In this document: positions 5,365 to 56,580 of the stretch, one piece after another | How the letters are laid out: each line of letters opens with the position of its first letter | How positions within the stretch are numbered: position 1 is the stretch's first letter | Source of the DNA: Bdellovibrionales bacterium | Lineage (GTDB): Bacteria; Bdellovibrionota; Bdellovibrionia; Bdellovibrionales; UBA1609 | DNA length: 64,000 bases | Assembly (NCBI GenBank): GCA_965219095.1 | Contig: CBDCMT010000001.1 | Coordinates: forward strand, 1,792,001 to 1,856,000 | Direction: 5' to 3' | Program-made: the position numbers and the translations under genes | Notes under the pieces: generated by a model | What the model saw: only the letters and a program-made list of their open reading frames with translations | Databases searched by the model: none | Told to the model about the DNA's origin: nothing

Positions 5365-5441
5365 CGGGCCGTAGCGCAGCTTGGTAGCGTGCCACCTTGG
5401 GGTGGTGGAGGTCGTCAGTTCAAATCTGATCGGCCCGACCA
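5365..5441 (+). tRNA. tRNA-Pro(GGG)
   Basis: Acceptor stem CGGGCCG/CGGCCCG, anticodon arm CCACC-TTGGGGT-GGTGG, GTTCAAATC T-loop and encoded CCA. Confidence 0.96.
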
Positions 5442-5647: not shown

Positions 5648-6760
5648 TTATGATTTTTTAGGGAACTGAATTAGTGTACCTATCCCTCCTTTCGTGCAAG
5701 GAACTTTTAAATTAAGGCTTTCTGTAGCTCCTTTTACATCTTCCCCACACAGCCTTAAATAACCTTGTGTTGTTCTTAAAGAAGCATGTCCTACTATACT
5801 CATCACTTTTGCTAGAGGTGCTCCATTGATAAGCATTTGAGTTATGAAAGTAGCTCTTAAATCATGAAACCTTACAGGCGTGATATTAAGAGCATAACAA
5901 AATTCCCTTAAAACCCTAGCTTGATCGCCACTTTCCCAATCACGAAGACGAGGCAGTACGAATTTTTCTTCTGGAAACTTCATTTTTAAGTCTTTAAGAA
6001 ACAAAGAACACTCTTTTGAGATAGGAACAACTCGATTTTTAGCTGTCTTTGTAGTGGTAAGACCATTAAATCTTGACCACGCCTTATTGACATGGATAAG
6101 ATCGCCTGAAAAGTCAATGTCTGTCCATTTTAAAGCAAAAAGTTCTCCTGATCTCATACCTGTTAAAAGAGCTAAAACCCATATAGGATAATACCTATGG
6201 TTATAGTTGTTAGCACTTTTTAAAAGAATTTGGATTTCTTCTTTGTTTAAGACTTTTTGTTTTGCCTCTGCCACTTTTACTTTAATTCCTACTGTGGGGT
6301 TTCTGTGCAAAATTCCGTCATCAACAGCCATTTGAAAAATTTTCCTCGTGGTTTTCAATACATTTTTTCTTGAATGAGATGAAAGAATGTCTATGGAGAA
6401 AACTAAGTCATGGATATTTGACGTTGTAATATCTTTTAGAAGAAGATTTCCTATGCAAGGAAAAATCCACTTTCTTAGGATTCCTTTGTGTCTTTGATAA
6501 GTAGAGTTTAAAAGTTGAACTCTTATCCTTTCAAGACATTTTTCTGACCATTTTTTAAATGCGTAAGCCTGTTTTACATCAAGCAATTCACACTTGAGTT
6601 TGAACTCCTGTTCTTGTGCTTTTTTTCTCGTGAGAAAACGTCTCTTAATTTGAACACGCTTCTTTTGAGCATCTTTGGCGGCAAGTCGTACCTCGTAATA
6701 TTTTTTTCCGTTATTATTGATTTCTACTATTGACATAATTAATTCCTTTCTTGAAAGCAA
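5648..6760 (-). CDS. Tyrosine recombinase / phage-type integrase
   Basis: TGMRSGEL, RFHDLRATF and VGHASLRTTQGY (R-HxxR-H-Y). True start may be MSIVEI at 6736. Confidence 0.95.
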   Translation of the reverse strand: MLSRKELIMSIVEINNNGKKYYEVRLAAKDAQKKRVQIKRRFLTRKKAQEQEFKLKCELLDVKQAYAFKKWSEKCLERIRVQLLNSTYQRHKGILRKWIFPCIGNLLLKDITTSNIHDLVFSIDILSSHSRKNVLKTTRKIFQMAVDDGILHRNPTVGIKVKVAEAKQKVLNKEEIQILLKSANNYNHRYYPIWVLALLTGMRSGELFALKWTDIDFSGDLIHVNKAWSRFNGLTTTKTAKNRVVPISKECSLFLKDLKMKFPEEKFVLPRLRDWESGDQARVLREFCYALNITPVRFHDLRATFITQMLINGAPLAKVMSIVGHASLRTTQGYLRLCGEDVKGATESLNLKVPCTKGGIGTLIQFPKKS

Positions 6761-34915: not shown

Positions 34916-36685
34916 TCAGTGAATTATAGTTTTCACATTACCCCGACCAACACAAACACTGTGCGGATTTTTGACCGCTTGAACCCAATTTCCCATTTCA
35001 GACTTTTTGGCTCCAAAATACTCCACACCTAGACCATGTTTATAGACTACAACCTTCTTGATGATCTCTGAGAGAAGTTCTTTTTGCTGTCTGGGGGTGA
35101 TTTTGGGTAGAGCCTTGTTTACAACCTTGAGTGCTGAAAAGATATTCTCTGCTGAAATGATGTTTTCTTTGAATTGAGACTTTTCCCTTTTGAGTTTGTC
35201 GATCTCTTCTTCTACCTGAGATTTCTTTTCACTAAGGTTGCCTAATTCTTCAATTAAAATGTCCTGAGCTTTCTGGTTCTTGCTTCTAGCAATGGCCTGA
35301 GTGAGGCTCTCTATATCTTTCCTTATGCCCTTTAAGGCTTCTAGGCGAGAGTACATAAGACTTTCCTGTTGTTTGAGACTCTCCTGGTTTTGGTGAGTGT
35401 TGTTTTGAGCAAGCTTTACTAAAAGGGCCTTATTTTTTGATAACTCTTTGAGTCGAAATAAAACACCTTCCTCTATAGTGTGGGCAGGAACATGCTCTAA
35501 GTCACATTTTTTTAAATGCCGATCTCCATAAGTCATCATCTTTCTTCTGTGGCCATAATAAAAGTACTTTTTTCCGTCTCTATTTGAGCTTCCTTTCCCT
35601 ACAAGCTTATCTCCACAAACTCCACAATACGTTAAACCTGAAAGAATATAACAATGATTGCTAGCTCTTAATTCTTTTTTATTTTTTTCTAAACGATCTT
35701 GAACCTCATTAAAAAGATTTTTATCAATAATAGCAGGCCACTGGCTGTCATAAACTTTGTATCTTTCAGGAACAGAAAGCTCTGACTGATCTTTATTTCT
35801 ATTTTTCTTGTTGAGTTCTCTTTTTCCTAAATAGGAAAAGTTGGTGAGAACAGTGTATAAAGACGAAGCAGTCCATCTTGTTCCGCCTCTTTTTTGTCCC
35901 TTTTTATTTACAAAAGACTTGGTGGTGTAACCATTTTGATTTAAAAAGTTTAAAACTTTAAATGTTGAGCCTAGCTCTAGAAGCTTTTTAAAAATCATTT
36001 GAACTATAGGTTTTTCTTCTTCATTAACTTTCAAATGGCATTTTTTTTCAGGGTGAAGATCATAGCCTAACATTCTTTGTCCACCATTAGAAAGACCTCT
36101 CTCTGCCCTTGCGTGAACTCCATGCTTTATACGCTCTACAGTGGTTTGCCTTTCAAATTGAGCAAAGCTAATGGCTTGGATAACCATAAGCTCTCCCATA
36201 GCAGTTGAGGTGTCAAAGTTTTCCTTTAGACTAAAAAACTTCACTTTATGTTCTTTGAGAAAATCCCAAAACTGGCAGAAATCTTTAACACTTCTACTAA
36301 GCCTTGAAAGCTCTGTTACAATAACAGCATTAACCTTTCCTAAAACAATGTCTCTACACATTTTTTGAAAAGCTGGACGGTTTAAGTTCTTCCCTGAATA
36401 ATCCTTGTCTGTGTAAGTTTCAATAACTTTTCCCCAATTTTTTTCAGTGTTGTTTTTCATATTGATAAAGTTTTTAATTCTTTGTGGGTGAGATACAAGA
36501 GAGCCTTCTTCTCTAATTTCATCACTTGGAGAAAGCCTCACATAAGAAGCTATGTTGTATTTATAATCCAATTGTTTTTTTGAAGTCTTCTTTTTTGAGG
36601 ACATGGCCTTTGAGGGGTTTTCCCCTTTTGCTATTTTCCTCCATGAACCGCTGTAACATGTTTGCGATTTTTTCGATTCTTTCAT
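34916..36685 (-). CDS. Large serine recombinase (LSR1)
   Basis: YVRLS, DYSGK...RPAF, ELSRLSR, recombinase domain, CGVCG zinc ribbon and coiled coil. True start probably MSSKKK (~36604). Confidence 0.93.
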   Translation of the reverse strand: MKESKKSQTCYSGSWRKIAKGENPSKAMSSKKKTSKKQLDYKYNIASYVRLSPSDEIREEGSLVSHPQRIKNFINMKNNTEKNWGKVIETYTDKDYSGKNLNRPAFQKMCRDIVLGKVNAVIVTELSRLSRSVKDFCQFWDFLKEHKVKFFSLKENFDTSTAMGELMVIQAISFAQFERQTTVERIKHGVHARAERGLSNGGQRMLGYDLHPEKKCHLKVNEEEKPIVQMIFKKLLELGSTFKVLNFLNQNGYTTKSFVNKKGQKRGGTRWTASSLYTVLTNFSYLGKRELNKKNRNKDQSELSVPERYKVYDSQWPAIIDKNLFNEVQDRLEKNKKELRASNHCYILSGLTYCGVCGDKLVGKGSSNRDGKKYFYYGHRRKMMTYGDRHLKKCDLEHVPAHTIEEGVLFRLKELSKNKALLVKLAQNNTHQNQESLKQQESLMYSRLEALKGIRKDIESLTQAIARSKNQKAQDILIEELGNLSEKKSQVEEEIDKLKREKSQFKENIISAENIFSALKVVNKALPKITPRQQKELLSEIIKKVVVYKHGLGVEYFGAKKSEMGNWVQAVKNPHSVCVGRGNVKTIIH

Positions 36686-36854: not shown

Positions 36855-37136
36855 TTAGTTAAAAAGGGCCTTTATATCGGAAAGCCTAGGGCTTTTATTA
36901 GCACTCTCTAGCTCTTTGATGAGAGATTTGGCATAGGTCACAGGATTTTGAGTTTCTTTTTTAATTTTGTTGATATTTTTTTTAAAGTGCTGCTTTTCAT
37001 AGCTTTCAATAATAAAAGAAGTGAGGGCTTGTTTTTTGACTTTACTGGCAGTCTCTTTATTGAGAGCTTCTAGCATTTTTATAAGAGATTTGTTAGCTTG
37101 ATTTGAAATAGCAATTTTAGAAAATTTTTCTTTCAT
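36855..37136 (-). CDS. 93-aa conserved protein (possible DNA-binding regulator)
   Basis: Paralogues at 41868-42152 and a decayed copy at ~45475-45750. Confidence 0.7.
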   Translation of the reverse strand: MKEKFSKIAISNQANKSLIKMLEALNKETASKVKKQALTSFIIESYEKQHFKKNINKIKKETQNPVTYAKSLIKELESANKSPRLSDIKALFN

Positions 37137-37172
37137 AAATTTTTTCTCCTTTTATTTAAAAGGAAAAATGGC

Positions 37173-37637
37173 CTAGGCCACTTTTCCTTTGTATTTTTCT
37201 ACAAATTCTAGAATATCGTGCTTCCAGTAGTAGTTTACTTCATCGAAGGTTATGAGTTCTTCATCTGAAACTAAGCCGTCTATGTATTCATCTTTAGCTA
37301 ATCTCCAAGAGATTTCATCAAGCTGTTTAATGGCAACTGCTGTATCCACCGTGAGCCAGACGATTTTTGTATCTTCTGAGTAGCACTTATCAATCATAGT
37401 CTCAAATGCTTCCTCTGTATTGACTGGATCAAGAGCTTCTTTTAAAAGTTGTTCATAGACCCATTCGGTTCCGTACTCAACTCCAAAGCCTTCAAGCTCA
37501 CGCATGAGATCATCTGTTCCACAAGCTTCGCAAACTCCTGTTGGTGCTTTCATGTAACAGCCATAGCAAAAGGGCCTTGTTTCGAAAAATGCGATTTGTT
37601 CTAGTTTTTCTGTGATTTGTTTTTTTGTTAGCTCCAT
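37173..37637 (-). CDS. Acidic Zn-ribbon protein, copy 1
   Basis: CYGC...CEAC; about 34 D/E vs 16 K/R; RBS AAGGAGG. Confidence 0.75.
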   Translation of the reverse strand: MELTKKQITEKLEQIAFFETRPFCYGCYMKAPTGVCEACGTDDLMRELEGFGVEYGTEWVYEQLLKEALDPVNTEEAFETMIDKCYSEDTKIVWLTVDTAVAIKQLDEISWRLAKDEYIDGLVSDEELITFDEVNYYWKHDILEFVEKYKGKVA

Positions 37638-37869
37638 ATTTGTCCTCCTTTGTTTATATGGTTTTTATTGTCAGGAGCTTGCAAAGGCCGAAGTGAGTGC
37701 TTTTCAAGAAAAAAATTGGGGGAAACCTTTAGGAGGAACCGATTTTTTTCTTTAAAAGCAGAACGAGCGCAGGCCTAAGCTCATGACAAAAATAAAAACC
37801 ATCATAAAAAACAAAGGAGATTAGGAGCTAACAATAAATCATAGAAAAACTATAAATTGCTTTTGAAAC
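37579..37869. repeat. ~290-bp imperfect hairpin covering the RBS and start of the acidic gene, copy 1
   Basis: Arm pairs TGTTAGCTCC/GGAGCTAACA, CTCCTTTGTTT/AAACAAAGGAG and ATGGTTTTTAT/ATAAAAACCAT. Confidence 0.85.
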
Positions 37870-38013
37870 AGTTCTTTATTGTCTTAGATAAAATCTTGCT
37901 TTGAGATATCTATGACTTTAGTTGTGTCTTAACAAAGACCATTATCTAATTTTATGGAGTATTTATATAGAATGACTTTATATTTGCCCTTGTCAATCCG
38001 TTATAGTTTATAG

Positions 38014-38571
38014 ATGATCCTTTTAAAGAACAGAATAATTCAGAATCCTTTTTATTTATTACTTAGTTTTTTACTCATTCTCTCTCTTTTTTCTTGTGAT
38101 GAAAAATCAAATTCAACTGATTCAAATTCTTGTGAACCATGTAATTCTTGTGAACCATGTAATTCTTGTGAGTCATGTCCTCCTTGTCCTGTTCACAAGA
38201 AATTAAAAGATGGAACTTTTTTCGTCGGTTTAACCACACATGGTATGTTACTTGAAGTATCGAATTCCGGCGCAAACTATAAGATGGCGATACTTGATAA
38301 AGATCAACTGCTTTATATAACAGGATCAGGGAAAATTTCTTATGATGGAAATTATATTCAGTATAACGAAACTCCCTCTAGCTGTGGTACTTTATTCTCC
38401 GAACAAAACATAAAAGGTTATAGAGTTTACTATGTAGGGGAAGATATGTTATATCTAAAAGTATATGAGGATAGCTCTGTTGTGCCTGTATCTTTATATA
38501 AAGAAGATTCAACTTTTGACAGTTTAATAGAATCGATAATAGCTAACGGCTATACTTCTGCCTGTCCTTGA
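38014..38571 (+). CDS. Lipoprotein with an 18-bp (NSCEPC) tandem repeat
   Basis: LFSC lipobox; SCEPCN-SCEPCN-SCESC. Confidence 0.75.
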   Translation: MILLKNRIIQNPFYLLLSFLLILSLFSCDEKSNSTDSNSCEPCNSCEPCNSCESCPPCPVHKKLKDGTFFVGLTTHGMLLEVSNSGANYKMAILDKDQLLYITGSGKISYDGNYIQYNETPSSCGTLFSEQNIKGYRVYYVGEDMLYLKVYEDSSVVPVSLYKEDSTFDSLIESIIANGYTSACP

Positions 38572-38652
38572 GAAATTAATAAGAATAATATTTTTTAAAT
38601 TAACCCTTGAGAAAAATATCCAGTGTTTTATTTTTCAAAAAGAGAAAGTAGC

Positions 38653-39117
38653 CTAGGCTATTTTCTCTTTATATTTTTCTATAAACTCCATAATATCATG
38701 CGTCCAGTAATAGTTTTCTTCATCAAAAGTGATAAGTTCTTCATCAGAGACTAAGCTATCTATATAACTGTCTATTTCTAAATTCCAAGAAATCTCATCA
38801 AGTTGTTTAATGGCAGTAACAGTGTCTACTGTAATCCAGCCGATTTTAACTTCTTCTGGGTAACATCCATCAACCATAGTTTCAAAGATTTCTTCTTTAT
38901 CGACTGGAACAAGGGCTTCTTTTAAAAGCTGTTCATAGACCCATTCGGTTCCATATTCAACGCCAAAGCCTTCAAGTTCACGCATAAGATCATCTGATCC
39001 ACATTTGTGACAAACTCCTGTTGGTGCTTTTATGTAACAGCCATAGCAAAATGGTGTTGTTTCAATAAAAGCGATTTTTTCTAGTTTTTCTATGATTTGT
39101 TGTTTTGTTAGCTCCGT
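38653..39117 (-). pseudogene. Acidic Zn-ribbon protein, copy 2, with ATG changed to ACG
   Basis: Collinear with 37173-37637 (465 bp); start codon reads ACG at 39117-39115. Confidence 0.7.
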
Positions 39118-39352
39118 ATTTGTCCTCCTTTGTTTATATGGTTTTTATTGTCAGGAGCTTAAAAGAGGCCGAAGCGAGTGCTTTTCAAGACAAAAAATTG
39201 GGGGAAACCTTTTAGGGGGAACCGATTTTTTTCTTTAAAAGCAGAACGAGCGTAGGCCTAAGCTCATGACAAAAATAAAAACCATCATAAAAAACAAAGG
39301 AGGTTAGGAGCTAACAATAAATCGTAGGAAAGCTTAGAAATTGCTTTTGAAA
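39059..39352. repeat. Second copy of the ~290-bp hairpin
   Basis: Near-identical to 37579-37869, with the same arm complementarity. Confidence 0.85.
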
Positions 39353-39383
39353 TAGCTTTTTATTGTCTAGGTGAAAAAAGTAC

Positions 39384-40903
39384 GCCTCCTCAAAAGAATC
39401 TGTGGCTTCCCGGAGGTTCTGGCAGTTTTCCAAGGTTATGATATAAGGCGATTTTTATAGCTTTAGAGGTTCTAAAGCCGTAAGATTTTCTCATAGTGAG
39501 TTTTACTTTGTTGTTTAAACCCTCTACAATCCCTGAGGAGAAGGCTTTTTTAGCCTTGAAGTAATTAAGAATAAGTAGCTTATGTCTTCGTATGGTTTTT
39601 GCTTCTCTTTTCATAGGTTCAATTTTTGAAAGCATGACTCGTCTCGTCCAACTGTCTATAAATTTACCAGCCCAAGTTGGTGAAACATAGGTCCATAACT
39701 GTCGGAAGTCTTCTTTTAAAAAATAACAGCGGATACTTTTTAAATTGTACTGTATTAAATGCCTTAATTTTACTTTCTCATAAGATTTTAAATTTTCTGC
39801 ATTTTTTAACAAGGGCCATCTAGCTTTTGTTAAAAGGGGTTCATACCCGTCTTCTTTCATTTTTTTGTGTTCTGAAGCTCTCACTTCGTCTAAAGCCTTA
39901 TTGAGTCTTGCTACGATATGAAACCGATCTAATATATTCAAAGCTTGACTTGCCCTTTCCTTTATTACTTTTAAATAGGGCTTCCACATATCAGAACACA
40001 CAAACTGTATATCTTTTGACTTCTCTCCTAGTAAATCAAAGAATTTTCTAAAACTCTTTTCTGTTCTTTTTTCTCCTATCCATAGCAAACGAACACTTTC
40101 TTTGCTTATTTCATAGACTAAGGTGAGATACTGATGGTTCTTTTTCCATTGTATTTCATCTACACCTATAGCTTGTATTCCCTTTAAAACCCTTTGTTTT
40201 AAACCATATTCTACGACCCATTCTACCGAAGCATAGACCTGATTCCAACTGACATGAAACTTACAAGAAACCTCTTTCCAAGACAGGTGACGACACCAGT
40301 CAGCTAAGTACTTCATGTAAAAAATTGTTAGGTTTTTCTTACCATCGGCCCAAGGTAAATACTCAACTTTTACCCCACAGCAAGGACAATTAACTCTTCT
40401 TACAAAATAAACAAAAAACACCCTGTAACTTAAAATAGGAAGGGATTCAAAGTCCCGTGATGATTTACTGCTGTCATACACTGAACAGGGCTTCTTACAA
40501 ACACTACAAAAAGCTTGGCCATTTTTACGAGCCTTAATAGGAACATTAATTGACTTTCTATCTTTTGAAAAATAAATGTCTCCGTATACAAAAGACTTCC
40601 ATCTTAAACAATCATTTAGTATAGTCTTCAAAAGCATCTCTTCCCTCCTTTTTTTTTTTTTTTGAATAACATTTTAAGGCATCTGGGAAGTAGGTGCTTC
40701 TTTTTTAAAATTTTAATGTAACACAGCAAATAAAAGCAAATAAAAGAATGTTTTTGAGTTCAATCACCGGAGGTGATAGAGGCCAGTAAGGGCCTCAAAG
40801 AACTCAAAAATACAAGATAGAATGTCTTACTCTTACTTTGATTAATATGAGCTCTTTTGGGGGATTTCTACTACTTTTCACCCACAGATTCCCGGGAGGA
40901 GCC
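39384..40903 (-). mobile_element. ISL3-family insertion sequence, complete, 8-bp target duplication AAAAGTAC
   Basis: IRs GGCTCCTCCCGGGAATCTGTGG / GCCTCCTCAAAAGAATCTGTGG; TSD at 39376-39383 and 40904-40911. Confidence 0.92.
39390..40637 (-). CDS. ISL3 transposase
   Basis: Zn finger, IGVDE, CSDMW..Y, LDRFH and EGLNNKVK...R.SYGFR. Confidence 0.95.
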   Translation of the reverse strand: MLLKTILNDCLRWKSFVYGDIYFSKDRKSINVPIKARKNGQAFCSVCKKPCSVYDSSKSSRDFESLPILSYRVFFVYFVRRVNCPCCGVKVEYLPWADGKKNLTIFYMKYLADWCRHLSWKEVSCKFHVSWNQVYASVEWVVEYGLKQRVLKGIQAIGVDEIQWKKNHQYLTLVYEISKESVRLLWIGEKRTEKSFRKFFDLLGEKSKDIQFVCSDMWKPYLKVIKERASQALNILDRFHIVARLNKALDEVRASEHKKMKEDGYEPLLTKARWPLLKNAENLKSYEKVKLRHLIQYNLKSIRCYFLKEDFRQLWTYVSPTWAGKFIDSWTRRVMLSKIEPMKREAKTIRRHKLLILNYFKAKKAFSSGIVEGLNNKVKLTMRKSYGFRTSKAIKIALYHNLGKLPEPPGSHRFF

Positions 40904-40944
40904 AAAAGTACTAACAGGGGTTTTTAGTTTAAAGAATAAGAACT

Positions 40945-41286
40945 CTAGATTGTGACTTTGCAGTACTCCGAAGGGTTGTCTGGATCATCACTTTTTGAAG
41001 CATTATTGTGCCAGTGAAGAGGTTGAAGGTTTGAGAGTTCATCTCCACCACCTTTTGCGACTGGATTAATGTGATCGATTTCCCAGCCGTATTCAGAGCC
41101 TCTATTTCCATATTGGTTGAAGTGGATTGTGGCACCACATTTATCTTGACGATTATTATTGTCGATTACTTCTCGTACAATACCATCGTCTTCTTCAGTT
41201 ATATAACTAGCTTTCTCCCAAACCTGTTCAATGATGCTTTGTTCAAAAGCATCCCCATTTCTTTTTGTATTAGGTTTTCTTTTCAT
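40945..41286 (-). CDS. HNH endonuclease
   Basis: GWEIDHINPVAKGGGDELSNLQPLHWHNN..K.D. Confidence 0.9.
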   Translation of the reverse strand: MKRKPNTKRNGDAFEQSIIEQVWEKASYITEEDDGIVREVIDNNNRQDKCGATIHFNQYGNRGSEYGWEIDHINPVAKGGGDELSNLQPLHWHNNASKSDDPDNPSEYCKVTI

Positions 41287-41590
41287 TTTTACCTCCTAAA
41301 TTTTTTAACCACTCTACTTTTCTTAATAAATTGAAGAAATGTTCATACACATGTATGTCATGGTATTGTTTATTTTGATGAACAAATTGAATAACTTTAA
41401 AAGCTTCTTTAATTTTTTGTTCGTCTTCAAAACTTATTTCAGAGGATTTGTGAAAAAGTGCCTCATGAACATTTCTAAATAATTCATCATAACGAGTTTT
41501 CCTTACTTGATCTTTTGTAAATTTTTTCCCATTTGGAAGTGATATCTCTTTCGCTTTCTTTATATTTTTCAAGCCTATGTCAATTATCAT
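41270..41590 (-). CDS. Hypothetical protein
   Basis: 106 aa overlapping the HNH start. Confidence 0.5.
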   Translation of the reverse strand: MIIDIGLKNIKKAKEISLPNGKKFTKDQVRKTRYDELFRNVHEALFHKSSEISFEDEQKIKEAFKVIQFVHQNKQYHDIHVYEHFFNLLRKVEWLKNLGGKNEKKT

Positions 41591-41867
41591 TTTAATTCTC
41601 TTTTCCTGCTTTCGCTTTAAATTACATTTTTCAATAATTTTAAAAAACTATCGGTATTTCTACCAATAATTTTTTTAGTATTACACATAAGACCTCCTTT
41701 GGCAAGATTATCTTGCCAGAAAAATGAAAAACCAGGGTTTTTAGGAAGGGAAAATGCTTTGAAAATGATATAGACTGGGTGTTTAAAGAGCCTTTAGTGG
41801 AGCTTTTCTTACTCTTGATAAGTGGGTTTTGAAAAAGAAGCTTTTTTATTGCGTTATCATTTGTAGA

Positions 41868-42152
41868 TTATTTTTTAAAAAAAGACTGAATGTCTTTAAA
41901 ACCTATGTTTTTGTTGTTTTTTTCAAGCTCTTTTAGAAGAGATTTAGCATAAGCAAGAGGGCTTTGTGTTTCTTTGATCATTCTTTTTCGGTCGATTTTA
42001 AAAAACTTTTTTTCATACTGAATCACAAGCCAAGAAAGAAGAGCCTGCTTTTTAACCTTTGTATGAGAGTCGTTGTTAAGAGATTCAAGCATTCTTTCTA
42101 AGGCATTATTCCCCTTATTTGTAATAGCAATTTTTATGAGTTTTTCTTTCAT
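41868..42152 (-). CDS. 94-aa paralogue of 36855-37136
   Basis: MKEKL.KIAI...KVKKQAL...YEK...KETQ.P..YAKSL.KELE. Confidence 0.7.
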   Translation of the reverse strand: MKEKLIKIAITNKGNNALERMLESLNNDSHTKVKKQALLSWLVIQYEKKFFKIDRKRMIKETQSPLAYAKSLLKELEKNNKNIGFKDIQSFFKK

Positions 42153-42219
42153 ATTTTTTCTTTCATTCTGTTTGAAAAAGGGTAAGTAGCTATAAAGCCA
42201 TTTTCCCTTTATATTTTTC

Positions 42220-42615
42220 GGCTCCTCCCAGGAATCTGTGGGTAAAAAGTAGCTAGAAATTCCCCAAACGGGTCATATCAAGCAAAGCAAGAAAGTAAAG
42301 ATTAAGATATCCTATCTTATATTTTTGAGCTCTTTGAGATCTTTTGCTGGTCTCTATTGCTTCAGCGATTGAACTCAAAAATCTTCATTTTATTTGCTGT
42401 ATTACATTAAAATCTTAAAAAAGAAGTCCCTACTTCCCAGATGCTTTTGAAGACTATACTAAATGATTGTTTAAAATGGTAGTCTTGTGTATGGAGACAT
42501 TTATTTTTATGCTTTTAAAGTAATTCATCTTAATTTTTACTTTCTTGCTTTGCTTGATATGACCCGTTTGGGGAATTTCTAGCTACTTTTTACCCACAGA
42601 TTCCCGGGAGGAGCC
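42220..42615. mobile_element. Non-autonomous ISL3 derivative made of two inverted left ends
   Basis: ~80-bp near-perfect IRs starting GGCTCCTCCC(A/G)GGAATCTGTGGG; interior matches the ISL3 5' region up to MLLKTILND. Confidence 0.8.
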
Positions 42616-42779
42616 AAATTTTTAAGCTTAATTTTTCGTTTTTGAGTATAAGGTTCTCTATGTATTAGAAATATTTTGTCTAAATACTTTTTTTTGAAAA
42701 TCATTTTGCTCCTTATGTTGGATTATGTTATTATAGCTAAGGTATATTTTATTCAAGCAAGCTTGAAAAGGCGTAAGAT

Positions 42780-43205
42780 ATGGTTTTATTTTCTAAGATA
42801 ATAAATAGACTTTTAATAGCTTTAGAAGTACTTTCTTATGTTTTTATAATTTTGATACCAGGTAGTATATTTATATTTAGCGATTATGTTGGTATTGGTA
42901 TGTTTTATTATTTAGTAGGTTATTGCCTTTTCTCTTTTATTCTCTTTAGAGTTGTCAGATTTGTTTTAAAGCCTTTTTTAGAAATTCATGAAGGTGATAA
43001 AAATACGGCTCCTCAAAAGAACCTCCGGGAACCCACAGATTCTTTTGAGGAGGCATTTTTTCTTTTGCCTCTATTTTTTCTTACTTCAATTATCATCACT
43101 TGGTTTAAAGGAACAGGTAATTTTATAGAAAAAGTAAAACGTGTTTTTATTGGGACAATTTTGCTTATTGCTTTTCCTGAAATCACAGAGGCTGTTTTAT
43201 CGTAA
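42780..43205 (+). CDS. Membrane protein ORF, possibly chimeric, containing a 48-bp ISL3 mini-end
   Basis: Hydrophobic segments; 43007-43054 is ISL3 terminal sequence read in frame. Confidence 0.4.
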   Translation: MVLFSKIINRLLIALEVLSYVFIILIPGSIFIFSDYVGIGMFYYLVGYCLFSFILFRVVRFVLKPFLEIHEGDKNTAPQKNLREPTDSFEEAFFLLPLFFLTSIIITWFKGTGNFIEKVKRVFIGTILLIAFPEITEAVLS

Positions 43206-43396
43206 CTGTTCGGAAAAATTCTAGTTAGGTTTTACCTGAATTTTAAAATAAATCGTTAAAATTATTAGTGTTTTTTAGTTTTAACCCCCTGCCTTCTTCG
43301 GACAACTACCCGTGACCCTGCTCTCCTTACATAACTGTCGTGCGAATGGGGTCACGGCTAGCTTGAAAGCAGAGGGTATGGTATAAGGAGAGGGTA

Positions 43397-43471
43397 TATA
43401 GTGACAGCGCTTAGATTTTCCATCTATTCCCCCCTAGAAGAAAAGACTGAAAACTAACCGGAAGCACTATA
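43397..43471 (+). mobile_element. ~75-bp IS630-derived MITE
   Basis: TATAGTGA...CGGAAGCACTATA; aligns with 30060-30133 and the IS630 end. Confidence 0.65.
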
Positions 43472-43524
43472 CATCGGAGACAATAGTGAAGACAATTAGG
43501 TTATGTTTTTAAGTAAAAAAATAC

Positions 43525-44991
43525 ATGGGAAATAAAAAATATATTTATAATTCAAAATTTTTTTCTCCATTTATATTGATTAAAGATAAAGGTAAAATTC
43601 AAAAAATAAGAAAAGAGTTTTATAAAATTAACCATAACAATTGGCACTTTGATAAGACAAGCGGAGAGCAAGCCTCTCAATATACATGTACAGATTTTCT
43701 TCTCTACATTGTTTTTTCATTTAATAGAAAAAATAAAAAAGGCGAAGCTCGTTTATGGTTGATTTATAGCGAAAAAGAGTTATTTGATGGATACCCTCAT
43801 ATATTTATTACAAATATTATTTCCTCAGAAGAGGGTATTGATGTTGTAGAACACAACAATATAGCAAAATCATTTTACAAAGAAGTAATGGTCACATTAG
43901 CTAATAATTTAAACTTAGAGCATGGAGAAACTATGAATGGGAAGCATAGGACTTCAATAGAGAGTACATCAAATACAGATCCAAATCCATGTTATTCGAT
44001 TAAAGAACAAATAAATAACATCTCTTGCCAACGTCCGCACCTTGTCATACTTGGAGCAGGAGCAACTAGAGCAACACTTCCCAATGGAGATAAAAACGGA
44101 AAAACATTACCTTTAATGAATGATCTTATTGAAATTCTTGATCTAAGTAAGTTAATTACAGATTGTACCTCTGAAGTACCAAACAATTTTGAAGTGTTTT
44201 ATAGTTCTATACACAAGGAAAAATCCGATCTATCTAAACAAATAGAGAGAAAGATATATGAATATTTTTCATCTGTCCAAATACCAGATAAGCCCACTAT
44301 TTATGATTATTTGATTTTTTGCTTAAGAGAAAAAGATGTTATAGCTACTTTTAATTGGGATCCTATTTTAGATCAAGCTCTTGAAAGAAGTGCCACTTAT
44401 TTTAAAAATAAATGTAGGGAGTTTCGCCTGCCACAAATATTACACCTTCATGGTAATGTTTCTATTGGTTATTGTATCGACTGTCAAACAAAGGGTTCAA
44501 TAATGACTCTTTGTCATAAATGTAATAAACCTAGAAGAAAATCTCAGTTATTGTATCCTGTATCTGAAAAAAACTATAAATTAGATGCTTATATTGAACA
44601 AAATTGGAAAGCTGTTCAAAAAGTTTTTGAACAAGCGTACATTGTAACAATTTTTGGCTATTCAAAACCTACTTCGGATGCAAAAGCTATAACGCTTTTT
44701 AAAAATGCTTGGGGGACGCAAGAAGATAGAGATCTTGAGGAATTTGAAATTATAAACACAGAGAATACGGTTGAAAGTTGGGAAGAGTTTATACACACAC
44801 ATCATTTCGAATATACAAATAACTTTTTTGAATCTAAAATTGCAAGGTTTCCAAGAAGATCATGTGAGTGCGAATGGGAAAGACTTATGGAATGTAAGTT
44901 TTTCGATGGCAATCCAATAAAAAACCGCTCTTCTTTTAAGGAGCTATATGATTTCATGGAACCACTAATAAAAAGAGAGTTAGAAAAATGA
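43525..44991 (+). CDS. SIR2-like domain protein with an N-terminal extension
   Basis: ILGAGAT, TFNWD, LHLHGNV, CxxC..CxxC and IFGYS motifs. Confidence 0.82.
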   Translation: MGNKKYIYNSKFFSPFILIKDKGKIQKIRKEFYKINHNNWHFDKTSGEQASQYTCTDFLLYIVFSFNRKNKKGEARLWLIYSEKELFDGYPHIFITNIISSEEGIDVVEHNNIAKSFYKEVMVTLANNLNLEHGETMNGKHRTSIESTSNTDPNPCYSIKEQINNISCQRPHLVILGAGATRATLPNGDKNGKTLPLMNDLIEILDLSKLITDCTSEVPNNFEVFYSSIHKEKSDLSKQIERKIYEYFSSVQIPDKPTIYDYLIFCLREKDVIATFNWDPILDQALERSATYFKNKCREFRLPQILHLHGNVSIGYCIDCQTKGSIMTLCHKCNKPRRKSQLLYPVSEKNYKLDAYIEQNWKAVQKVFEQAYIVTIFGYSKPTSDAKAITLFKNAWGTQEDRDLEEFEIINTENTVESWEEFIHTHHFEYTNNFFESKIARFPRRSCECEWERLMECKFFDGNPIKNRSSFKELYDFMEPLIKRELEK

Positions 44992-45314
44992 GGAAACCCA
45001 ACACCAACCAATACGGCAAAGACTTCTCAAAAGAAGAGGAGCTTCTTGTCTGAAAAAAAGACGAAATTATTTCTGGTGAAAACCCTACTGTAGTCCGAAA
45101 AGATAAATGTGGAGCAACTATTTACTTTGATCAATATGGATATGATGAAAACGGAAAGCCTCAAAAGTATGGTTGGGAGATTGATCATATTATGTCAGTT
45201 TCAAAAGGTGGGGGAGATGAACTTTCCAATCTCCAGTCTCTTCATTGGAGAAACAATCGCTCAAAAGGTGATAATTCAGATATTCCCCCAGAATATTGCA
45301 AAATCACAGATTAA
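44988..45314 (+). pseudogene. HNH endonuclease with a premature TGA
   Basis: Paralogue of 40945-41286; TGA at 45051 where the paralogue has Trp; GWEIDH...GGGDELSNLQ.LHW.NN retained. Confidence 0.8.
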
Positions 45315-45474
45315 GTATAAGTTTTCTTCTTAGTCTAGATCAGAGTTTAATAACCAATAAAGAAATCCTATATCAAAAACTATTTCAACATAATTTTTCT
45401 CCCAAACCCTTCCTAAAGTATTTTTTTTAAGTTTGATATTTTTCATAGGAGAATAGATAAAAAAATCTTTAAAA

Positions 45475-45750
45475 TAAAAACTCACAAAAATTGCAATTAC
45501 AGATGAGGCTAACAAAGCCCTTGAAAAAATGCTTGAAACTCTTCATAAAAACTCTCTTTTCAAAATCAAAAAACAGAATCTTTCTTCATGGATTATAGAG
45601 ACTTATGAAAAAAGTTATTTTTCAACGCCTAAAGAGGCTCAAAACCCCATACTTATGCCAAGTCCGTTATTAAAAAGCTAGAAGAGACCAAGAAAAATCC
45701 TACACTAAAGGAGATCAACAGTATTTTCTCAAAGCTAGAAGGCACACATA
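45475..45750 (+). pseudogene. Decayed copy of the 93/94-aa protein
   Basis: KLTKIAITDEANKALEKMLE...IKKQNLSSWIIETYEK; no start codon and a frameshift near 45650. Confidence 0.65.
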
Positions 45751-45825
45751 AGAACTTTATTTATACTCGGCACGTCATGTCTGTAAAATATGATTAAAAA
45801 TTGTTATTATTAAGGAGGAATTCTT

Positions 45826-46041
45826 ATGGGTAAGAACCGAAAACCTTACTCCAAGAAATACCCTATGCTAGACCATATAGAATGGATAAAAGTTGAACAA
45901 ACAGAGGAAGAGGAAAATGAAAGAATTAAAGAGATCGCAAGAATGCTCCACAGGTTTATGGAGGAAAATTGCAAAAGGAGAAAATCCCAAAAAAACAATG
46001 TATTCCAAAAAGAAGGCTTTAAAAAAAGCTTTGGACTGTAA
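45826..46041 (+). CDS. Conserved 71-aa protein overlapping the LSR2 start
   Basis: RBS AAGGAGG; homologous to 36561-36776. Confidence 0.65.
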   Translation: MGKNRKPYSKKYPMLDHIEWIKVEQTEEEENERIKEIARMLHRFMEENCKRRKSQKNNVFQKEGFKKSFGL

Positions 46042-47692
46042 GTATAGATTAGCGGTTTATGTAAGACTCTCTCCAAGTGATGAAATAAGAGAGGAAGGTT
46101 CTCTTATCTCTCATCCTCAAAGAATTAAAAATTTTGTTAAAATGAAAAACTCTACAGAAAAAAACTGGGGAAAAGTCATAGAAACTTATACAGATAAAGA
46201 TTTTTCAGGAAAGAATCTAAACCGCCCTGCTTTTAAGAAAATGTGTCGAGATATTATTTCAGGAAAAGTCAATGCTGTTATTGTCACAGAGCTTTCAAGG
46301 TTAAGTAGAAATGTAAAAGATTTTTGTGAGTTTTGGGAATTTTTAAAAGAAAATAAAGTTAAGTTTTTTAGTCTTAAAGAAAATTTTGACACCTCTACTG
46401 CTATGGGAGAGCTTATGGTCATTCAAGCTATTAGCTTTGCTCAATTTGAAAGACAAACTACTGTAGAGAGGATAAAACATGGAGTTCAAGCAAGAGCTGA
46501 ACGAGGTCTTTCTAATGGTGGGCAAAGGATGTTAGGCTATGATCCTCATTCTGAGAAGAAATGCCACCTTATGGTGAATGAAAAAGAAAAGCCTCTTGTT
46601 GAGTTTATTTTTAAAAAGTTTTTAGAGTTAGGCTCTCTAAGTAAAACTCTTAATTATTTAAATGAAAATGGCTATACTACAAAATCATTTCTAAACAAAA
46701 AGAAAGAGAAAAAAGGTGGCAACCGTTGGACTATGGGAACTCTTTATACTTGTCTTACGAACCTTGCTTATTTAGGGAAAAGGGAGTTAAATAAGAAAAA
46801 TCGCAACAAAGATCAATCAGAGCTGAGTCCTTCTGAAAGATATAAAGTCTATGAGAGTCAATGGCCTGCTATTGTATCCAAAGAGCTTTTTAATGATGCC
46901 CAAGCTCTTTTAGAAGTGAATAAAAAGCACACAAGGTTTAAGAAGCATTGTTATGTTCTTTCAGGCTTAGCTTATTGTGGGCTTTGTGGAGAGAAGATTG
47001 TAGGAGTTGTGGCTAACGGAAGAGATAGAAAGTATTACTACTATGGCCATAAGAGAAAGATGCTCGCTCATGGAACAAGGCATTTAGAAAGGTGTGAGCT
47101 TGAAAATGTGCCTGCTCATGCTTTAGAAGAAGCGGTTCTTTTTAGAATTAAAAACCTTATAAAAAACAAAAAACTTTTGATAGAGCTTGTCAAAAACAAC
47201 ACTTCGCAAAATGAAAAAAGCCTCAAACAGCATAAAAGCCTTATGCAGTCCCGTATAGAGGAGTTAAAGGCTATAGAAAAGGACATAGAAGGACTTACAA
47301 TGGCCATAGCAAGGGCTAAAGATGACAAAACCCAAGATGTTCTGTTAGCAGAAATGGACAAGTTGACTGAGAAGTCCCACGCTTTAAAAGAAGAGATAGA
47401 AAAGCTCAAAAAGGAAAAATCTAAAATGAAAGAAGGGCTTGTTTCAGCAGAAGGAGTGTTTTCAGCCTTAAAGCTTGTAAACAAAGAGTTACCTAAGCTA
47501 GATCGACAACAGCAAAGACAACTCCTTATGAAAGTTATAAAACGAATTGTGGTCTATAAGGATAAACTAGGGGTAGAGTATCTAGGGGAACAAAACCCCA
47601 ACTTAGACTTTGGGGTTCAAGCGGTCAAAAATTTGTCTGATTTTCGACTTGGTCGACCAACACAAACACTGTGCGGATTTTTGACCGCTTGA
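45893..47692 (+). CDS. Large serine recombinase (LSR2)
   Basis: Same motifs as LSR1, diverged. True start probably MYSKKK (~45998). Confidence 0.93.
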   Translation: MNKQRKRKMKELKRSQECSTGLWRKIAKGENPKKTMYSKKKALKKALDCKYRLAVYVRLSPSDEIREEGSLISHPQRIKNFVKMKNSTEKNWGKVIETYTDKDFSGKNLNRPAFKKMCRDIISGKVNAVIVTELSRLSRNVKDFCEFWEFLKENKVKFFSLKENFDTSTAMGELMVIQAISFAQFERQTTVERIKHGVQARAERGLSNGGQRMLGYDPHSEKKCHLMVNEKEKPLVEFIFKKFLELGSLSKTLNYLNENGYTTKSFLNKKKEKKGGNRWTMGTLYTCLTNLAYLGKRELNKKNRNKDQSELSPSERYKVYESQWPAIVSKELFNDAQALLEVNKKHTRFKKHCYVLSGLAYCGLCGEKIVGVVANGRDRKYYYYGHKRKMLAHGTRHLERCELENVPAHALEEAVLFRIKNLIKNKKLLIELVKNNTSQNEKSLKQHKSLMQSRIEELKAIEKDIEGLTMAIARAKDDKTQDVLLAEMDKLTEKSHALKEEIEKLKKEKSKMKEGLVSAEGVFSALKLVNKELPKLDRQQQRQLLMKVIKRIVVYKDKLGVEYLGEQNPNLDFGVQAVKNLSDFRLGRPTQTLCGFLTA

Positions 47693-47696
47693 ACCC
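47613..47696. other. Symmetric serine-recombinase att-like junction centred on CG 47654-47655
   Basis: TTGGTCGACCAA core plus perfect 20-bp IR GGGTTCAAGCGGTCAAAAAT, both symmetric about the same axis. Confidence 0.75.
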
Positions 47697-49310
47697 AATT
47701 TCCTATTTCAGACTTTTTGGCTCCAAAATACTCCACGCCTAAGCCATGTTTATAGACTACAACCTTCTTGATGATCTCTGAGAGAAGCTCTTTTTGTTGT
47801 CTGGGAGTGATTTTGGGCAGAGTCTTATTTACAACCTTGAGTGCTGAAAAGATATTCTCTGCTGAAATGATGTTGTCTTTGAATTGAGACTTTTCCTTTT
47901 TGAGCTTTTTGATCTCTTCTTCTACCTGAGATTTCTTTTCACTAAGGTTACCTAACTCTTCAATTAAAATGTCCTGAGCTTTCTGATTCTTACTTCTAGC
48001 AATGGCCTGAGTGAGACTTTCTATATCTTTCCTTATGCCCTTTAAGGCTTCTAGGCGAGAGTACATAAGGCTTTCCTGCTGTTTGAGACTCTCCTGATTT
48101 TGGTGAGTGTTGTTTTGAGCAAGCTTTACTAAAAGGGCCTTATTTTTTGATAACTCTTTGAGTCTAAACAAAACACCTTCCTCTATAGTGTGGGCAGGAA
48201 CATGCTCTAAGTCACATTTTTTTAAATGCCGATCTCCATAAGTCATCATCTTTCTTCTGTGGCCATAATAAAAGTATTTTTTTCCGTCTCTATTTGAGCT
48301 TCCTTTCCCTACAAGTTTATCGCCACAAACTCCACAATAAGTTAAACCTGAAAGAATATAACAATGATTGCTGGCTCTTAATTCTTTTTTATTTTTTTCT
48401 AAACGATCTTGAACCTCATTAAAAAGATTTTTATCAATAATAGCAGGCCATTGGCTATCATAAACTTTGTATCTTTCAGAAATAGAAAGCTCTGACTGAT
48501 CTTTATTTCTATTTCTCTTATTAAGCTCTCTTTTTCCTAAATAGGAAAGGTTGGTGAGAACAGTGTATAAAGACGAGATAGTCCATCTTGTTCCGCCTCT
48601 TTTTTTCTCCCTTTTTGTTCACAAAAGACTTCGTAGTGTAGCCGTTTTGATTTAAAAAGTTTAAAACTTTAAATATAGAGCCTAGCTCTAAAAGCTTTTT
48701 AAAAATCATTTGAACTATAGGTTTTTCTTCTTCATTAACTTTCAAATGGCATTTTTTTTCAGGGTGAAGATCATAGCCTAACATTCTTTGTCCACCATTA
48801 GAAAGACCTCTCTCTGCTCTTGCGTGAACTCCATGCTTTATACGCTCTACAGTGGTTTGTCTTTCAAATTGAGCAAAACTAATGGCTTGGATAACCATAA
48901 GTTCTCCCATAGCAGTTGAGGTATCAAAGTTTTCTTTTAGACTAAAAAACTTCACTTTATGTTCTTTGAGAAAATCCCAAAACTGGCAAAAATCTTTAAC
49001 ACTTCTACTAAGCCTTGAAAGCTCTGTTACGATAACAGCATTAACCTTTCCTAAAACAATGTCTCTACACATTTTTTGAAAAGCTGGACGGTTTAAGTTC
49101 TTCCCTGAATAATCCTTGTCTGTGTAAGTTTCAATAACCTTTCCCCAATTCTTCTCTGTATTGTTTTTCATATTGATAAAATTTTTGATTCTTTGTGGGT
49201 GAGATACAAGAGAGCCTTCTTCTCTAATTTCATCGCTTGGAGAAAGCTTCACATAAGAAGCTATCTTGTGTTTATAATCTAATCGTTTTTTTGAAGTCTT
49301 CTTTTTTAAG
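47617..49310 (-). pseudogene. Large serine recombinase (LSR3), near-identical to LSR1, frameshifted and 5'-truncated
   Basis: Extra base in the T-run at ~48600-48606; YVKLS instead of YVRLS; start replaced by hsdS sequence. Confidence 0.85.
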
Positions 49311-49878
49311 AACAGATTGGCAATAGAGCTTTAGTTTTTCTTTAGCGGTTTCTAGTTCTTTTTTACTTTGGTCAATCAAAGAAAAGAGAGTTTCAATTTT
49401 TTTAACAATGACTCTTTGTTCGGGGATAGGGGCAAGTGGAGAGGGAATCGTCTTTAATTTACTACTTGACAACTCCTTAAAAGTAACACCTGATCCCAAA
49501 GAATTTAGTAAATCCTTCTTCAATTTTAAGAAGTAATAAATATATTCTGAAAGATTATTGCCTTTAACAATTAAGTTACGAAAACCTTGGTTTGTAGTAA
49601 CCATATTTGATGCTATCACAACGTATCCAATTGGAGTTCTTGTTGAGAGCAAGACACTTCCTTTAGGTAATTCTTTGGCGGAAGACTTTTTTAAACCCTC
49701 TAAGGAAATGTTTTTATTCCCTCTTGAAATATACTTGCTTTTATAATTAGAAAGGTCTTTAGGGGTTATCCATGGTATACCTCCGCCCCAATATTTTTCA
49801 TTCATTGTTGAATGGAGTTCCGCCACCTATTATTTCGCATACATCCTCTAACTTACACTCAGTCCAATCATCTCTCAT
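49272..49878 (-). pseudogene. hsdS: Type I R-M specificity subunit half (one TRD), frameshifted and fused to the LSR3 5' region
   Basis: MRDDWTECKL..GGGTP/STMNEKYW..IPWITPKDL, TNQGF and PIPEQRVIV.KIE.LFS.ID. Confidence 0.8.
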
Positions 49879-52739: not shown

Positions 52740-54037
52740 CTAGCCAAGATTGTCTTCAGTGTCGCTTGTGGCCACCCAATACTCCTTTTCTGAGGGGTAG
52801 AGCCTAATCACTGCCTTTTCCTCTCCTTGTACCATAAAAGCTTCTGAAAACTCCCTCTTTTTGCTTTGAAGGCTTGCTACAAGAGAGAGTTCCCTCTCAT
52901 TGAGCTTTAATATCTCATAGGCAGGCTTTAGGTCTCCTTTTTGTTGAAGAATAAATTTTGTGGCGGTGTTGTTTAGAATCGCAGGGCCTATGGGGTGGTT
53001 AGCGATTTCCTCTATCCCTTGAGTGATGAATGTTATGCCAGATCCAGTTTTTCTAAGAGTTCGTACACAATACTCCATAAAATTTGAACTAGCCCTTCCC
53101 TTAAGTAGTTCCCAACACTCATCCATCAAAATGCGTTTCTTTTTTAAAGTTGTTTTAGGATCATTTGCTTCTATCCTTTGTAAAATAAAATTAGTGATAA
53201 TTAAAATCATAACACTTTGAAGGTCAGAGTAACTTGATAATCCTTTAAGATCAAAAACTACAAAATCATTTTCAGTGTTAAAACTTCCTTGAGTATCTAG
53301 AAGTTTTTCGTAAGGAGTTGAACTTGTCCAAGGATAGAGCATTTTAGCAAAGTTTTGAAGTTTTTTATCATTTGAATTTTTAAGTAGATTTTTAAAGTCC
53401 GAGAGTCTTGGAGTTTTATTGAACTTATAAAGTTCATCAATTTTTTCCTCTAATAAAGCACGTTCTAATTTGGGAAGTTTCTCTCCCTCAACATCCGTTA
53501 ATAAGTTCTCCATAAGTGCCAATAAGAATTTAATCTTTCCTGAATTTGGAGTCTTTGCGTTTCCTTGTAATGCAAACGGATTAAACGAGAGTGAATTGGG
53601 ATTTTCTTCTGAGTTATTAGACGATGGGGCAACATCAACATATTGACCTCTTGTTAGTTTGCAAATTTTTCTGTAGCTTCCGCCAATATCAATAATAAAA
53701 TTCATGGAGTTTTCCTTAATCTTTTCTTTGGATTGAAAATTCTCTGATTTTCCCTATGAAAACGGAGATTTTTTGAGGCGACCTAGAATGAAAAATCCTA
53801 GTGAGTAAAATTTATTTCGAATCTAGGTGAAGTAAAATAAGATTATTTAAAAAACTCTTCCCCGATCCTCTGGAGCCTGTAACTAGAGAATTGTAGTTAG
53901 AAAGCTTAGAATGAAATGGATCATATTTAACAAGAGCTTTTTCTCTGTTTCTAAAGAGACAAATTAGTTTTTGATCAACTCCTGTGTAGCTTTGATAGAC
54001 TGGTAGAAAATCAGCAAGGTTACTTGCCTTTGTTTTT
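52740..54037 (-). pseudogene. Second VirB4-like ATPase, fragment
   Basis: ORF 52740-53705 has DIGGSY, MDECW and RKTG..ITQ; upstream 53840-54037 encodes YDPF..NYNSLVTGSRGSGKS; ~100-bp insert between them; cut by the ISL3 end at 54038. Confidence 0.8.
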
Positions 54038-55073: not shown

Positions 55074-56580
55074 GGCTCCTCCCGGGAATCTGTGGGTGAA
55101 AAGTAGTAGAAATCCCCCAAAAAGGCTCATATTAATCAAAGCAAGAGTAAGACATTCTATCTTGTATTTTTGAGTTCTTTGAGGCCTTACTGGCCTCTAT
55201 CACCTCCGGTGATTGAACTCAAAAACATTCTTTTATTTGTTGTGTTACATTAAAATTTTAAAAAAGAAGCACCTACTTCCCAGATGCCTTAAAATGTTAT
55301 TCAAAAAAAAAAAAAGGAGGGAAGAGATGCTTTTGAAGACTATACTAAATGATTGTTTAAGATGGAAGTCTTTTGTATACGGAGACATTTATTTTTCAAA
55401 AGATAGAAAGTCAATTAATGTTCCTATTAAGGCTCGTAAAAATGGCCAAGCTTTTTGTAGTGTTTGTAAGAAGCCCTGTTCAGTGTATGACAGCAGTAAA
55501 TCATCACGGGACTTTGAATCCCTTCCTATTTTAAGTTACAGGGTGTTTTTTGTTTATTTTGTAAGAAGAGTTAATTGTTCTTGCTGTGGAGTAAAAGTTG
55601 AGTATTTACCTTGGGCCGATGGTAAGAAGAGTTTAACGATCTTTTACATGAAGTATTTAGCAGACTGGTGTCGTCACCTGTCTTGGAAAGAGGTTTCTTG
55701 TAAGTTTCATGTCAGTTGGAATCAGGTCTATGCTTCGGTAGAATGGGTCGTAGAATATGGTTTAAAACAAAGGGTTTTAAAGGGAATACAAGCTATAGGT
55801 GTAGATGAAATACAATGGAAAAAGAACCATCAGTATCTCACCTTAGTCTATGAAATAAGCAAAACCCGTGTACGCTTGTTGTGGATAGGAGAAAAAAGAA
55901 CAGAAAAGAGTTTTAGAAAATTCTTTGATTTACTAGGAGAGAAGTCAAAAGATATACGGTTTGTGTGTTCTGATATGTGGAAGCCTTATTTAAAAGTCAT
56001 AAAGGAGAGGGCAAGTGGAGCTTTACACATATTAGATCGGTTTCATATCGTAGCAAGACTCAATAAGGCTTTAGACGAAGTGAGAGCTTCAGAACACAAA
56101 AAAATGAAAGAAGACGGGTATGAACCCCTTTTAACAAAAGCTAGATGGCCCTTGTTAAAAAATGCAGAAAATTTAAAATCTTATGAAAAAGTAAAATTAA
56201 GGCATTTAATACAGTACAATTTAAAAAGTATCCGCTGTTATTTTTTAAAAGAAGACTTCCGACAGTTATGGACCTATGTTTCACCAACTTGGGCTGGTAA
56301 ATTTATAGACAGTTGGACGAGACGAGTCATGCTTTCAAAAATTGAACCTATGAAAAGAAAAGCAAAAACCATACAAAGACATAAGCTACTTATTCTTAAT
56401 TACTTCAAGGCTAAAAAAGCCTTCTCCTCAGGGATTGTAGAGGGTTTAAACAACAAAGTAAAACTCACTATGAGAAAATCTTACGGCTTTAGAACCTCTA
56501 AAGCTATAAAAATCGCCTTATATCATAACCTTGGAAAACTGCCAGAACCTCCGGGAACCCACAGATTCTTTCGAGGATGC
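55074..56580 (+). mobile_element. ISL3-family IS, copy 2, no target duplication
   Basis: Near-identical to 39384-40903; transposase starts at ATG 55327; flanks differ. Confidence 0.92.

Follow-up and report, generated by a model that had tools for sequence, protein, structure and literature searches.

Results

Three serine recombinase genes and a symmetric site

The window, which is the whole stretch of 64,000 nucleotides that was analyzed, contains three genes for large serine recombinases (LSR1, LSR2 and LSR3), flanked by remnants of the elements to which they belong. The features of this region are as follows.

34916..36685, minus strand: LSR1, an intact large serine recombinase of 589 residues, 98% identical to a copy at tRNA-Pro(TGG)
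36855..42152, minus strand: remnant of the LSR1 element, far end missing
42217..42618: inverted ISL3 ends at the axis between oppositely oriented remnants, probably a deletion scar
43083..45675, plus strand: remnant of the LSR2 element, far end missing
45917..47692, plus strand: LSR2, an intact large serine recombinase (Resolvase, Recombinase and Zn ribbon domains), 71% identical to LSR1
47617..49314, minus strand: LSR3, a pseudogene; contigs of two public sequencing runs carry the version seen in the window
52740..54036, minus strand: VirB4-like fragment belonging to the LSR3 element; the intact element at tRNA-Pro(TGG) matches it with 92% identity

LSR1 and LSR2 score above the Pfam cut-offs for PF00239, PF07508 and PF13408, in that order, and coiled-coil helices are visible in the structure model of a natural relative. 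By homology, LSR2 starts at the ATG at 45917; a TTG is present upstream at 45893. The open frame and the catalytic Y-x-R-x-S motif are intact in LSR1 and LSR2, but not in LSR3: about 27 of its N-terminal codons were lost when it became joined at 49314 to a fragment of a type I HsdS gene, its frame is shifted by one base near 48600, and the motif's invariant Arg is replaced by Lys. The first-pass annotation of this DNA had missed that LSR3 is broken. It had correctly reported that LSR1 matches LSR3 up to the same CG: the two are 95.4% identical over 1661 nt, and the identity ends at 34944-34945 and 47654-47655, respectively. The remnants next to LSR1 and LSR3 lie on the minus strand and those next to LSR2 on the plus strand.

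Several other features were observed in this region. At 36561-36776 and 45826-46041, a conserved frame of 71 codons runs across the LSR start in a different reading frame; it might encode a regulator or be part of translational coupling. A scan for promoters and terminators near LSR1 gave results at the level of shuffled sequence. The HsdS fragment is a half-gene (49272-49826) joined by deletion onto the LSR3 5' region. Copies of ISL3 are present at 39384-40903 and 55074-56580, with dozens more genome-wide, and the 42217-42618 region is a small element made up of two inverted ISL3 ends.

LSR2 and LSR3 overlap tail to tail across a site that is symmetric about C47654|G47655. The palindromic core, the perfect 20-bp inverted repeat (47613-47632 / 47677-47696) and the predicted C-terminal tails of all three proteins were found as first annotated. 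The site consists of the following parts.

47613..47653, plus strand: P arm of LSR2, formed by the 3' coding end of LSR2; positions 47613-47632 are a 20-bp block in common with the LSR1/LSR3 arm
47649..47660: 12-bp palindromic core, two tRNA 3' end (ACCA) replacements placed back to back
47654..47655: central dinucleotide CG, the crossover point, corresponding to tRNA-Pro nucleotides 71-72; four arm copies break here, contigs switch here to tRNA-Pro(TGG) and tRNA-Pro(GGG), and the element arms are symmetric about it
47656..47696, minus strand: P arm of LSR3, identical to the LSR1 arm and to two more copies in the genome

The site is symmetric because both arms are homologous 3' ends of paralogous genes in the same codon register. 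The FLTA end of the LSR2 and LSR3 proteins is the antisense reading of the shared block of the other arm. The two arms are otherwise about 50-60% alike around the 20-bp identity, and within the block all six third codon positions are conserved despite the diverged surroundings. The exact 20-mer is present in five copies in the 3.1-Mb genome, each of them 21 nt before TTGGT|CG in the 3' end of an LSR gene, and this recurrence is not due to chance. A pattern search with the 20-mer in viral contigs gave no match, and the searches of metagenome and viral contigs revealed no independent close relative of the arm; a lone match in a metagenome contig was discarded as a chance hit, located in an unrelated housekeeping region. 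The block lies largely beyond the usual footprint, and its identity may reflect an extra binding site, perhaps for the tail domain described below, or template switching in a quasi-palindrome.

The crossover maps to nucleotides 71-72 of tRNA-Pro

The arm of the LSR1/LSR3 type has four copies in the genome, and all four change partner exactly at the CG. Their partners are tRNA-Pro(TGG), a tail frame, the LSR2 arm and the probable end of a tyrosine-integrase element. At tRNA-Pro(TGG), the arm meets the antisense 3' end of the tRNA gene; the CG coincides with nucleotides 71-72, and the ACCA is contributed by the arm. Contigs of the public runs (three runs of one study, which may derive from the source sample) join the arm at 47654 to tRNA-Pro(TGG) (X1) and directly to tRNA-Pro(GGG) (X2). 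The junctions support, to the base, the crossover at the CG that had been proposed from the window.

Three further features bear on the position of LSR1.

5365..5441, plus strand: tRNA-Pro(GGG), to which the whole array is probably anchored
5648..6760, minus strand: tyrosine integrase of a conjugative element (5442-34949) that separates the tRNA gene from LSR1
34942..34949, plus strand: 8-bp repeat of the tRNA-Pro(GGG) 3' end; the LSR1 junction has its CG within this repeat, and the tyrosine-integrase element probably has its right end here

The tRNA-Pro(GGG) gene and the LSR1 junction have this 8-bp repeat in common, and it bounds the 29.5-kb tyrosine-integrase conjugative element. We infer that this element slipped in between tRNA-Pro(GGG) and LSR1 and displaced the latter. 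The present tail of LSR1 is most likely an accident, derived from the end of the tyrosine-integrase element. The 54-bp end to the left of LSR1 was also considered as an LSR arm and rejected, as the family motif described below is absent at both expected distances; we prefer, with reasonable though not full confidence, to assign it to the tyrosine-integrase element. This end (34892-34949) recurs with 92% identity and the same core at C2:742098-742155, inside the intact LSR island, where an 11-kb block of cargo terminates. No left end matching the 54-bp sequence was found. Among the cargo of the tyrosine-integrase element (5442-34949) are genes for a type ISP restriction enzyme, for an nSTAND3 NTPase and for a DprA + PRTase pair. 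The DprA + PRTase block (32870-34856) is duplicated with 97.7% identity at C2:1868271-1870256, and conjugation genes of the LSR-island type (VirB3/VirB4/pilin-like) are represented by fragments in the cargo at 29886-32994.

LSR1-3 belong to a family of integrases that target tRNA genes

The ends of eight further LSR homologues in the genome adjoin tRNA genes or tail frames; those inspected adjoin tRNA-Met (three), tRNA-Ile, tRNA-Leu (two), tRNA-Ser, or a tail frame. We then classified 133 distinct 3' ends from cellular loci, six of which are from the source genome; the two ends at 47654 were excluded and 60 viral ends were set aside. A tRNA or tmRNA gene adjoins 92 of these ends (91 after removal of one mis-parsed row), eight are fused in frame to a tail, three are followed by a tail that is out of frame or preceded by a stop, 12 lie at contig ends, and 18 fall into none of these classes. 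The reading frame crosses the crossover centre in 88 of the 91 tRNA-adjacent ends, which upholds, for the family at large, the proposal that the att site lies within the 3' end of the recombinase gene itself. Half of these frames (44/88) stop 15 nt past the centre, in the antisense T-loop, and the run-on beyond the centre ranges from 5 to 252 nt.

The P arms of the family contain a conserved outer motif, GTTCG, at positions -23 to -19 (89-97% of 88 arms). On the host side, this motif is found in the T-loop of the tRNA, 5 bp closer to the centre, and the far arm of the element has it at the attP distance. These att sites are made up of a two-base centre and symmetric arms, and attP has its outer motif 5 bp more distant from the centre than attB does. 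The 5-bp offset of the T-loop fits the rule described for canonical large serine integrases, in which attP and attB differ by this distance in the placing of the outer motif (PMC3783163). The pattern is weaker in LSR1 and LSR2, whose arms have only three of the five bases of the family motif at -23 and GTTCA at -39 instead. By eye, no motif is seen in the host half-site beyond the tRNA, and, also by eye, targets switch often along the tree.

We conclude that LSR1-3 are members of a large serine integrase family, encoded by conjugative islands, whose insertion sites are the 3' ends of tRNA and tmRNA genes. Family members are mostly from Bdellovibrionota, and 85 of 201 genomes of the order contain a match at E<=1e-60. 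LSR matches in viral contigs are mostly distant, and none of the 60 viral ends is located at a tRNA gene. At one locus (L272; G160:C534:14300-20800), two convergent integrases of the family flank a tRNA-Arg/tRNA-Ser pair, with no direct arm-to-arm join. An intact element of the source genome spans C2:719.6-752.9 kb, and complete genomes contain others (G100:C1 and G178:C1).

The far arm of the islands opens a frame for a putative detached C-terminal domain

In three islands of the genome, the end of an older LSR at the far end runs in frame into about 155 additional residues, 24-33 kb from the intact LSR at the tRNA gene. This tail piece comprises a helix-turn-helix (HTH) and a second recombinase-like domain; the best structural matches in a Foldseek search with it are serine integrases, with weak scores (best E 2e-3). 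In relatives, the tail is found as a lone frame of 115-254 residues. Sixteen of 32 unfused tail frames have a clear core with the motif at the attP distance, and the other 16 have no clear motif. An ATG before the HTH is present in none of the 16 clear-motif frames, and in three of the 31 frames with a scorable core. At loci L046 and L072, the core is read in another frame and an ATG overlaps the core itself; in these lineages, the tail could be made on its own.

When excision was carried out in silico by joining the gene end to the far arm at the shared core, an open frame was obtained in eight of nine same-contig pairs; three of these pairs are from the source genome, and the one failure involves a second, outer tail. 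Five further pairs were all in frame, giving a total of 13 out of 14. Full-length fusions also exist in nature: P0001, of 760 residues, and five more of 730-769 residues, all of them seen in assemblies and several located at tandem junctions. A word-index search yielded one full-length fusion among 8000 scored candidates. The model of one natural fusion predicts a confidently folded core, a disordered linker of about 60 residues (about 532-590) across the att site, and then the HTH and recombinase-like domain. Natural fusions end in basic or variable sequences. The outer and inner integrases of at least one tandem array are unrelated in DNA sequence, and therefore the fusion there is a chimera. 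The genes restored in tandem in the source genome are broken in all three cases; the idea that such genes are always broken was ruled out by intact ones in relatives. A scan of genome contigs with a three-sequence alignment of the tail gave no match. A search of representatives with a tail profile returned mostly multi-HTH proteins, yet also many proteins of 145-260 residues with a single match.

These assemblies indicate that recombination rewrites the integrase's C-terminal end by a whole domain and not by ten codons. The first-pass annotation had supposed that each event swaps a tail of about ten codons: the C-terminus does change, but what is exchanged is predicted to be the domain of about 155 residues. 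None of the three tails in the window corresponds to a stage of the usual cycle: an integrated tail is read from the antisense strand of a tRNA gene, and the excised form would gain the domain of about 155 residues.

The site at 47654 is a join of two gene-side arms

The two arms at 47654 are the gene-side ends of two paralogues and not the two ends of one element; the cognate far arm of an LSR1/LSR3-type arm is located at C2:719603. Among the 133 classified ends, no tail-to-tail join was found, and none of 121 other ends resembles 47654. We conclude that at 47654 two gene-side arms were joined the wrong way round, as the palindromic CG permits. The site would be a true product of the crossover and yet a dead end, a rare by-product of a widespread family of split-gene integrases. 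That a palindromic centre permits either orientation, as the first annotation had stated, agrees with the opposite orientations of the LSR1 and LSR2 remnants. Of the 91 tRNA-adjacent ends, 35 have a CG or GC centre.

Another reading, which we consider very unlikely, is that 47654 is the working attP of a composite island (34944-47654) with two integrases, LSR1 and LSR2 acting as a pair like CcrA/CcrB and the 20-bp block serving as their shared binding site. In its favour, LSR1 and LSR2 are intact and face outwards, the two arms are of the P type, the join has the geometry of an attP, and the third codon positions of the block are kept in a diverged region. However, the 121 other ends contain no second case, the interior consists of two decayed remnants cut by insertion sequences and has no tail frame, and the genome holds neither an empty site nor a second copy.

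Somewhat less probable still is that the tails constitute a degron switch, in which about ten residues are swapped in each event and FLTA, as a ClpX-type degron, couples the stability of the enzyme to its integration state. The tails do change at the CG, and the LTA end of FLTA resembles LAA and LVA ends. Relatives have tmRNA tags with LAA or MAA as their last residues, and LSR2 could be destabilized by accident. Screening of the whole genome with ARAGORN detected 34 tRNA genes and no tmRNA gene in this assembly, which is 94% complete; this observation bears on arguments of the ssrA type. Against the proposed coupling, FLTA is seen only in the arm-to-arm join and at none of the 121 other ends, and one of its two carriers, LSR3, is dead. 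Moreover, integrated tails are whatever the antisense tRNA sequence gives, with their variable run-on: none of the 88 natural tails ends in AA, and four end in A.

An assembly artefact between near-identical repeats is the least probable explanation: the arm is a five-copy repeat and no contig bridges the junction with the 31 bases on both sides that our rule demands, but mismatch-free contigs of two of the three runs continue from the LSR2 end into 22 and 28 bases of the other arm, the run contigs list no other continuation of LSR2, and the join falls on the exact crossover base.

Discussion

A model for split-gene integrases and the history of the array

The account that we regard as likely, with good confidence, combines split-gene integrases that target tRNA genes with a wrong-way join at 47654. 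As far as can be read from the sequences, the integrase gene points at the tRNA gene, its last codons form the P arm that supplies the ACCA of the tRNA, the crossover falls on the two bases directly ahead of the discriminator, and the other arm of the element opens a frame of about 155 residues, mostly without an ATG. On the circle, the gene would encode an integrase of 730-770 residues. Integration would leave a core of 560-600 residues with a throw-away tail, and excision would rejoin the domain in frame. Newcomer elements would insert at the junction between tRNA and arm, generating tandem arrays.

Such an array presumably grew at tRNA-Pro(GGG). The LSR2 element would then have been inserted or flipped the wrong way, which is possible because the Pro centre CG is palindromic, so that its P arm now lies against that of LSR3. 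ISL3 activity at 42217-42618 probably removed the matching far-arm join together with both tails. No tail-frame remnant was found in the window and no far-arm join is kept between LSR1 and LSR2; the route to the 47654 join is therefore inferred. Intramolecular recombination between two attP sites has been reported for the LI/A118 integrase and CcrAB (PMC3783163). The palindrome first flagged in this window is a side product, and its main use is as base-exact evidence for the crossover.

Comparison with known systems

The comparisons made here draw on excerpts of the cited papers. An att site inside a serine integrase gene has already been published, for phage Perkons and for Dehalococcoides dsiB. 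In the Psychrobacillus phage Perkons, the serine integrase ORF165 has attP in its own coding region and its C-terminus is rewritten in frame, with junctions established by PCR and sequencing (PMC13245101). The target of Perkons is the protein gene floA, and residues 515-552 are swapped, whereas here the target is a tRNA gene on the opposite strand and a predicted DNA-binding module of about 155 residues is detached. The Dehalococcoides ssrA islands encode the large serine integrase DsiB, in which the overlap of the gene's 3' end with attL at an RNA gene is constant, and they form tandem arrays; the authors suggested that a full dsiB gene might exist only on the circle or where another island lies next to it (PMC3146451). 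In the excerpts of that paper, the missing 3' piece is not identified, tmRNA is the only target and there is a small partner recombinase, DsiA, while the family described here uses many tRNA genes.

The archaeal SSV-type “suicidal” integrases also have attP in the gene, target tRNA genes, are split upon integration, and give hybrids and target switching through tandem insertion (PMC7253208). They differ in being tyrosine recombinases of which both pieces are inactive; here, the enzymes belong to the serine family, the catalytic core with all standard domains remains whole, and intact tandem-restored genes exist. The IntP protein of myxophage Mx8 is a tyrosine recombinase as well, encoded by a phage and not by a conjugative island. 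Its attP lies within the integrase gene, and the new 3' end gained by integration alters activity without killing it (review PMC6070905). Finally, the LI/A118 and Bxb1 integrases have the domain order, the central dinucleotide and the 5-bp shift of the outer motif in common with the present family (PMC3783163, PMC12286644). Unlike these canonical enzymes, the present family has its att site within the gene, inspection by eye shows no motif in the host half-site on the far side of the tRNA, and attL-type junctions are reused as targets. In the full-text literature covered, which includes few subscription papers, we found no detachable HTH-recombinase tail in tRNA-targeting serine integrases, and the excerpts of PMC12884075 and bioRxiv 2020.12.28.424599 contain nothing that bears on the split design.

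Possible functions of the detached tail

Our first choice for the function of the tail, held with considerable doubt, is that it would provide a tethered extra grip on DNA, such that only the circle-encoded enzyme would integrate efficiently. This preference is based on the host arm beyond the tRNA, which shows no motif by eye. We regard self-regulation as rather unlikely, a role as an excision factor as slightly less likely than that, and a tail without any function as more improbable again. Engineered C-terminal fusions of an integrase to a recombination directionality factor (RDF) can reverse the direction of the reaction (PMC3783163, PMC12286644), and such fusions block integration (PMC12286644). 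A plain directionality factor is argued against because the recipient must integrate the element with the circle-encoded long form, and integrase-RDF fusions block integration.

We tentatively propose, with slightly more doubt than conviction, that the HTH and recombinase-like tail may act as a built-in direction switch, in which the state of the DNA would select the long or the short enzyme in place of a separate directionality factor. This would operate in a family that reads the universal T-loop and CCA, changes its tRNA target together with the two-base centre, and makes chimeric enzymes in tandem arrays. Such a system would be a natural and testable design for controlling the direction of serine integrases, with one gene giving two products chosen by recombination. 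Enzymes that read the near-universal T-loop and CCA of tRNA genes, and apparently accept whatever DNA follows, could serve as tools for integration in a broad range of hosts; clones made from chromosomal copies would contain the short form and lack the tail. The model would also explain orphan HTH/recombinase frames of about 150-200 residues as markers of island ends. At two loci of the family (L084 and L085), the P arm contains a hairpin, which could act as a terminator of the tRNA transcript and would then be a third function in the gene end.
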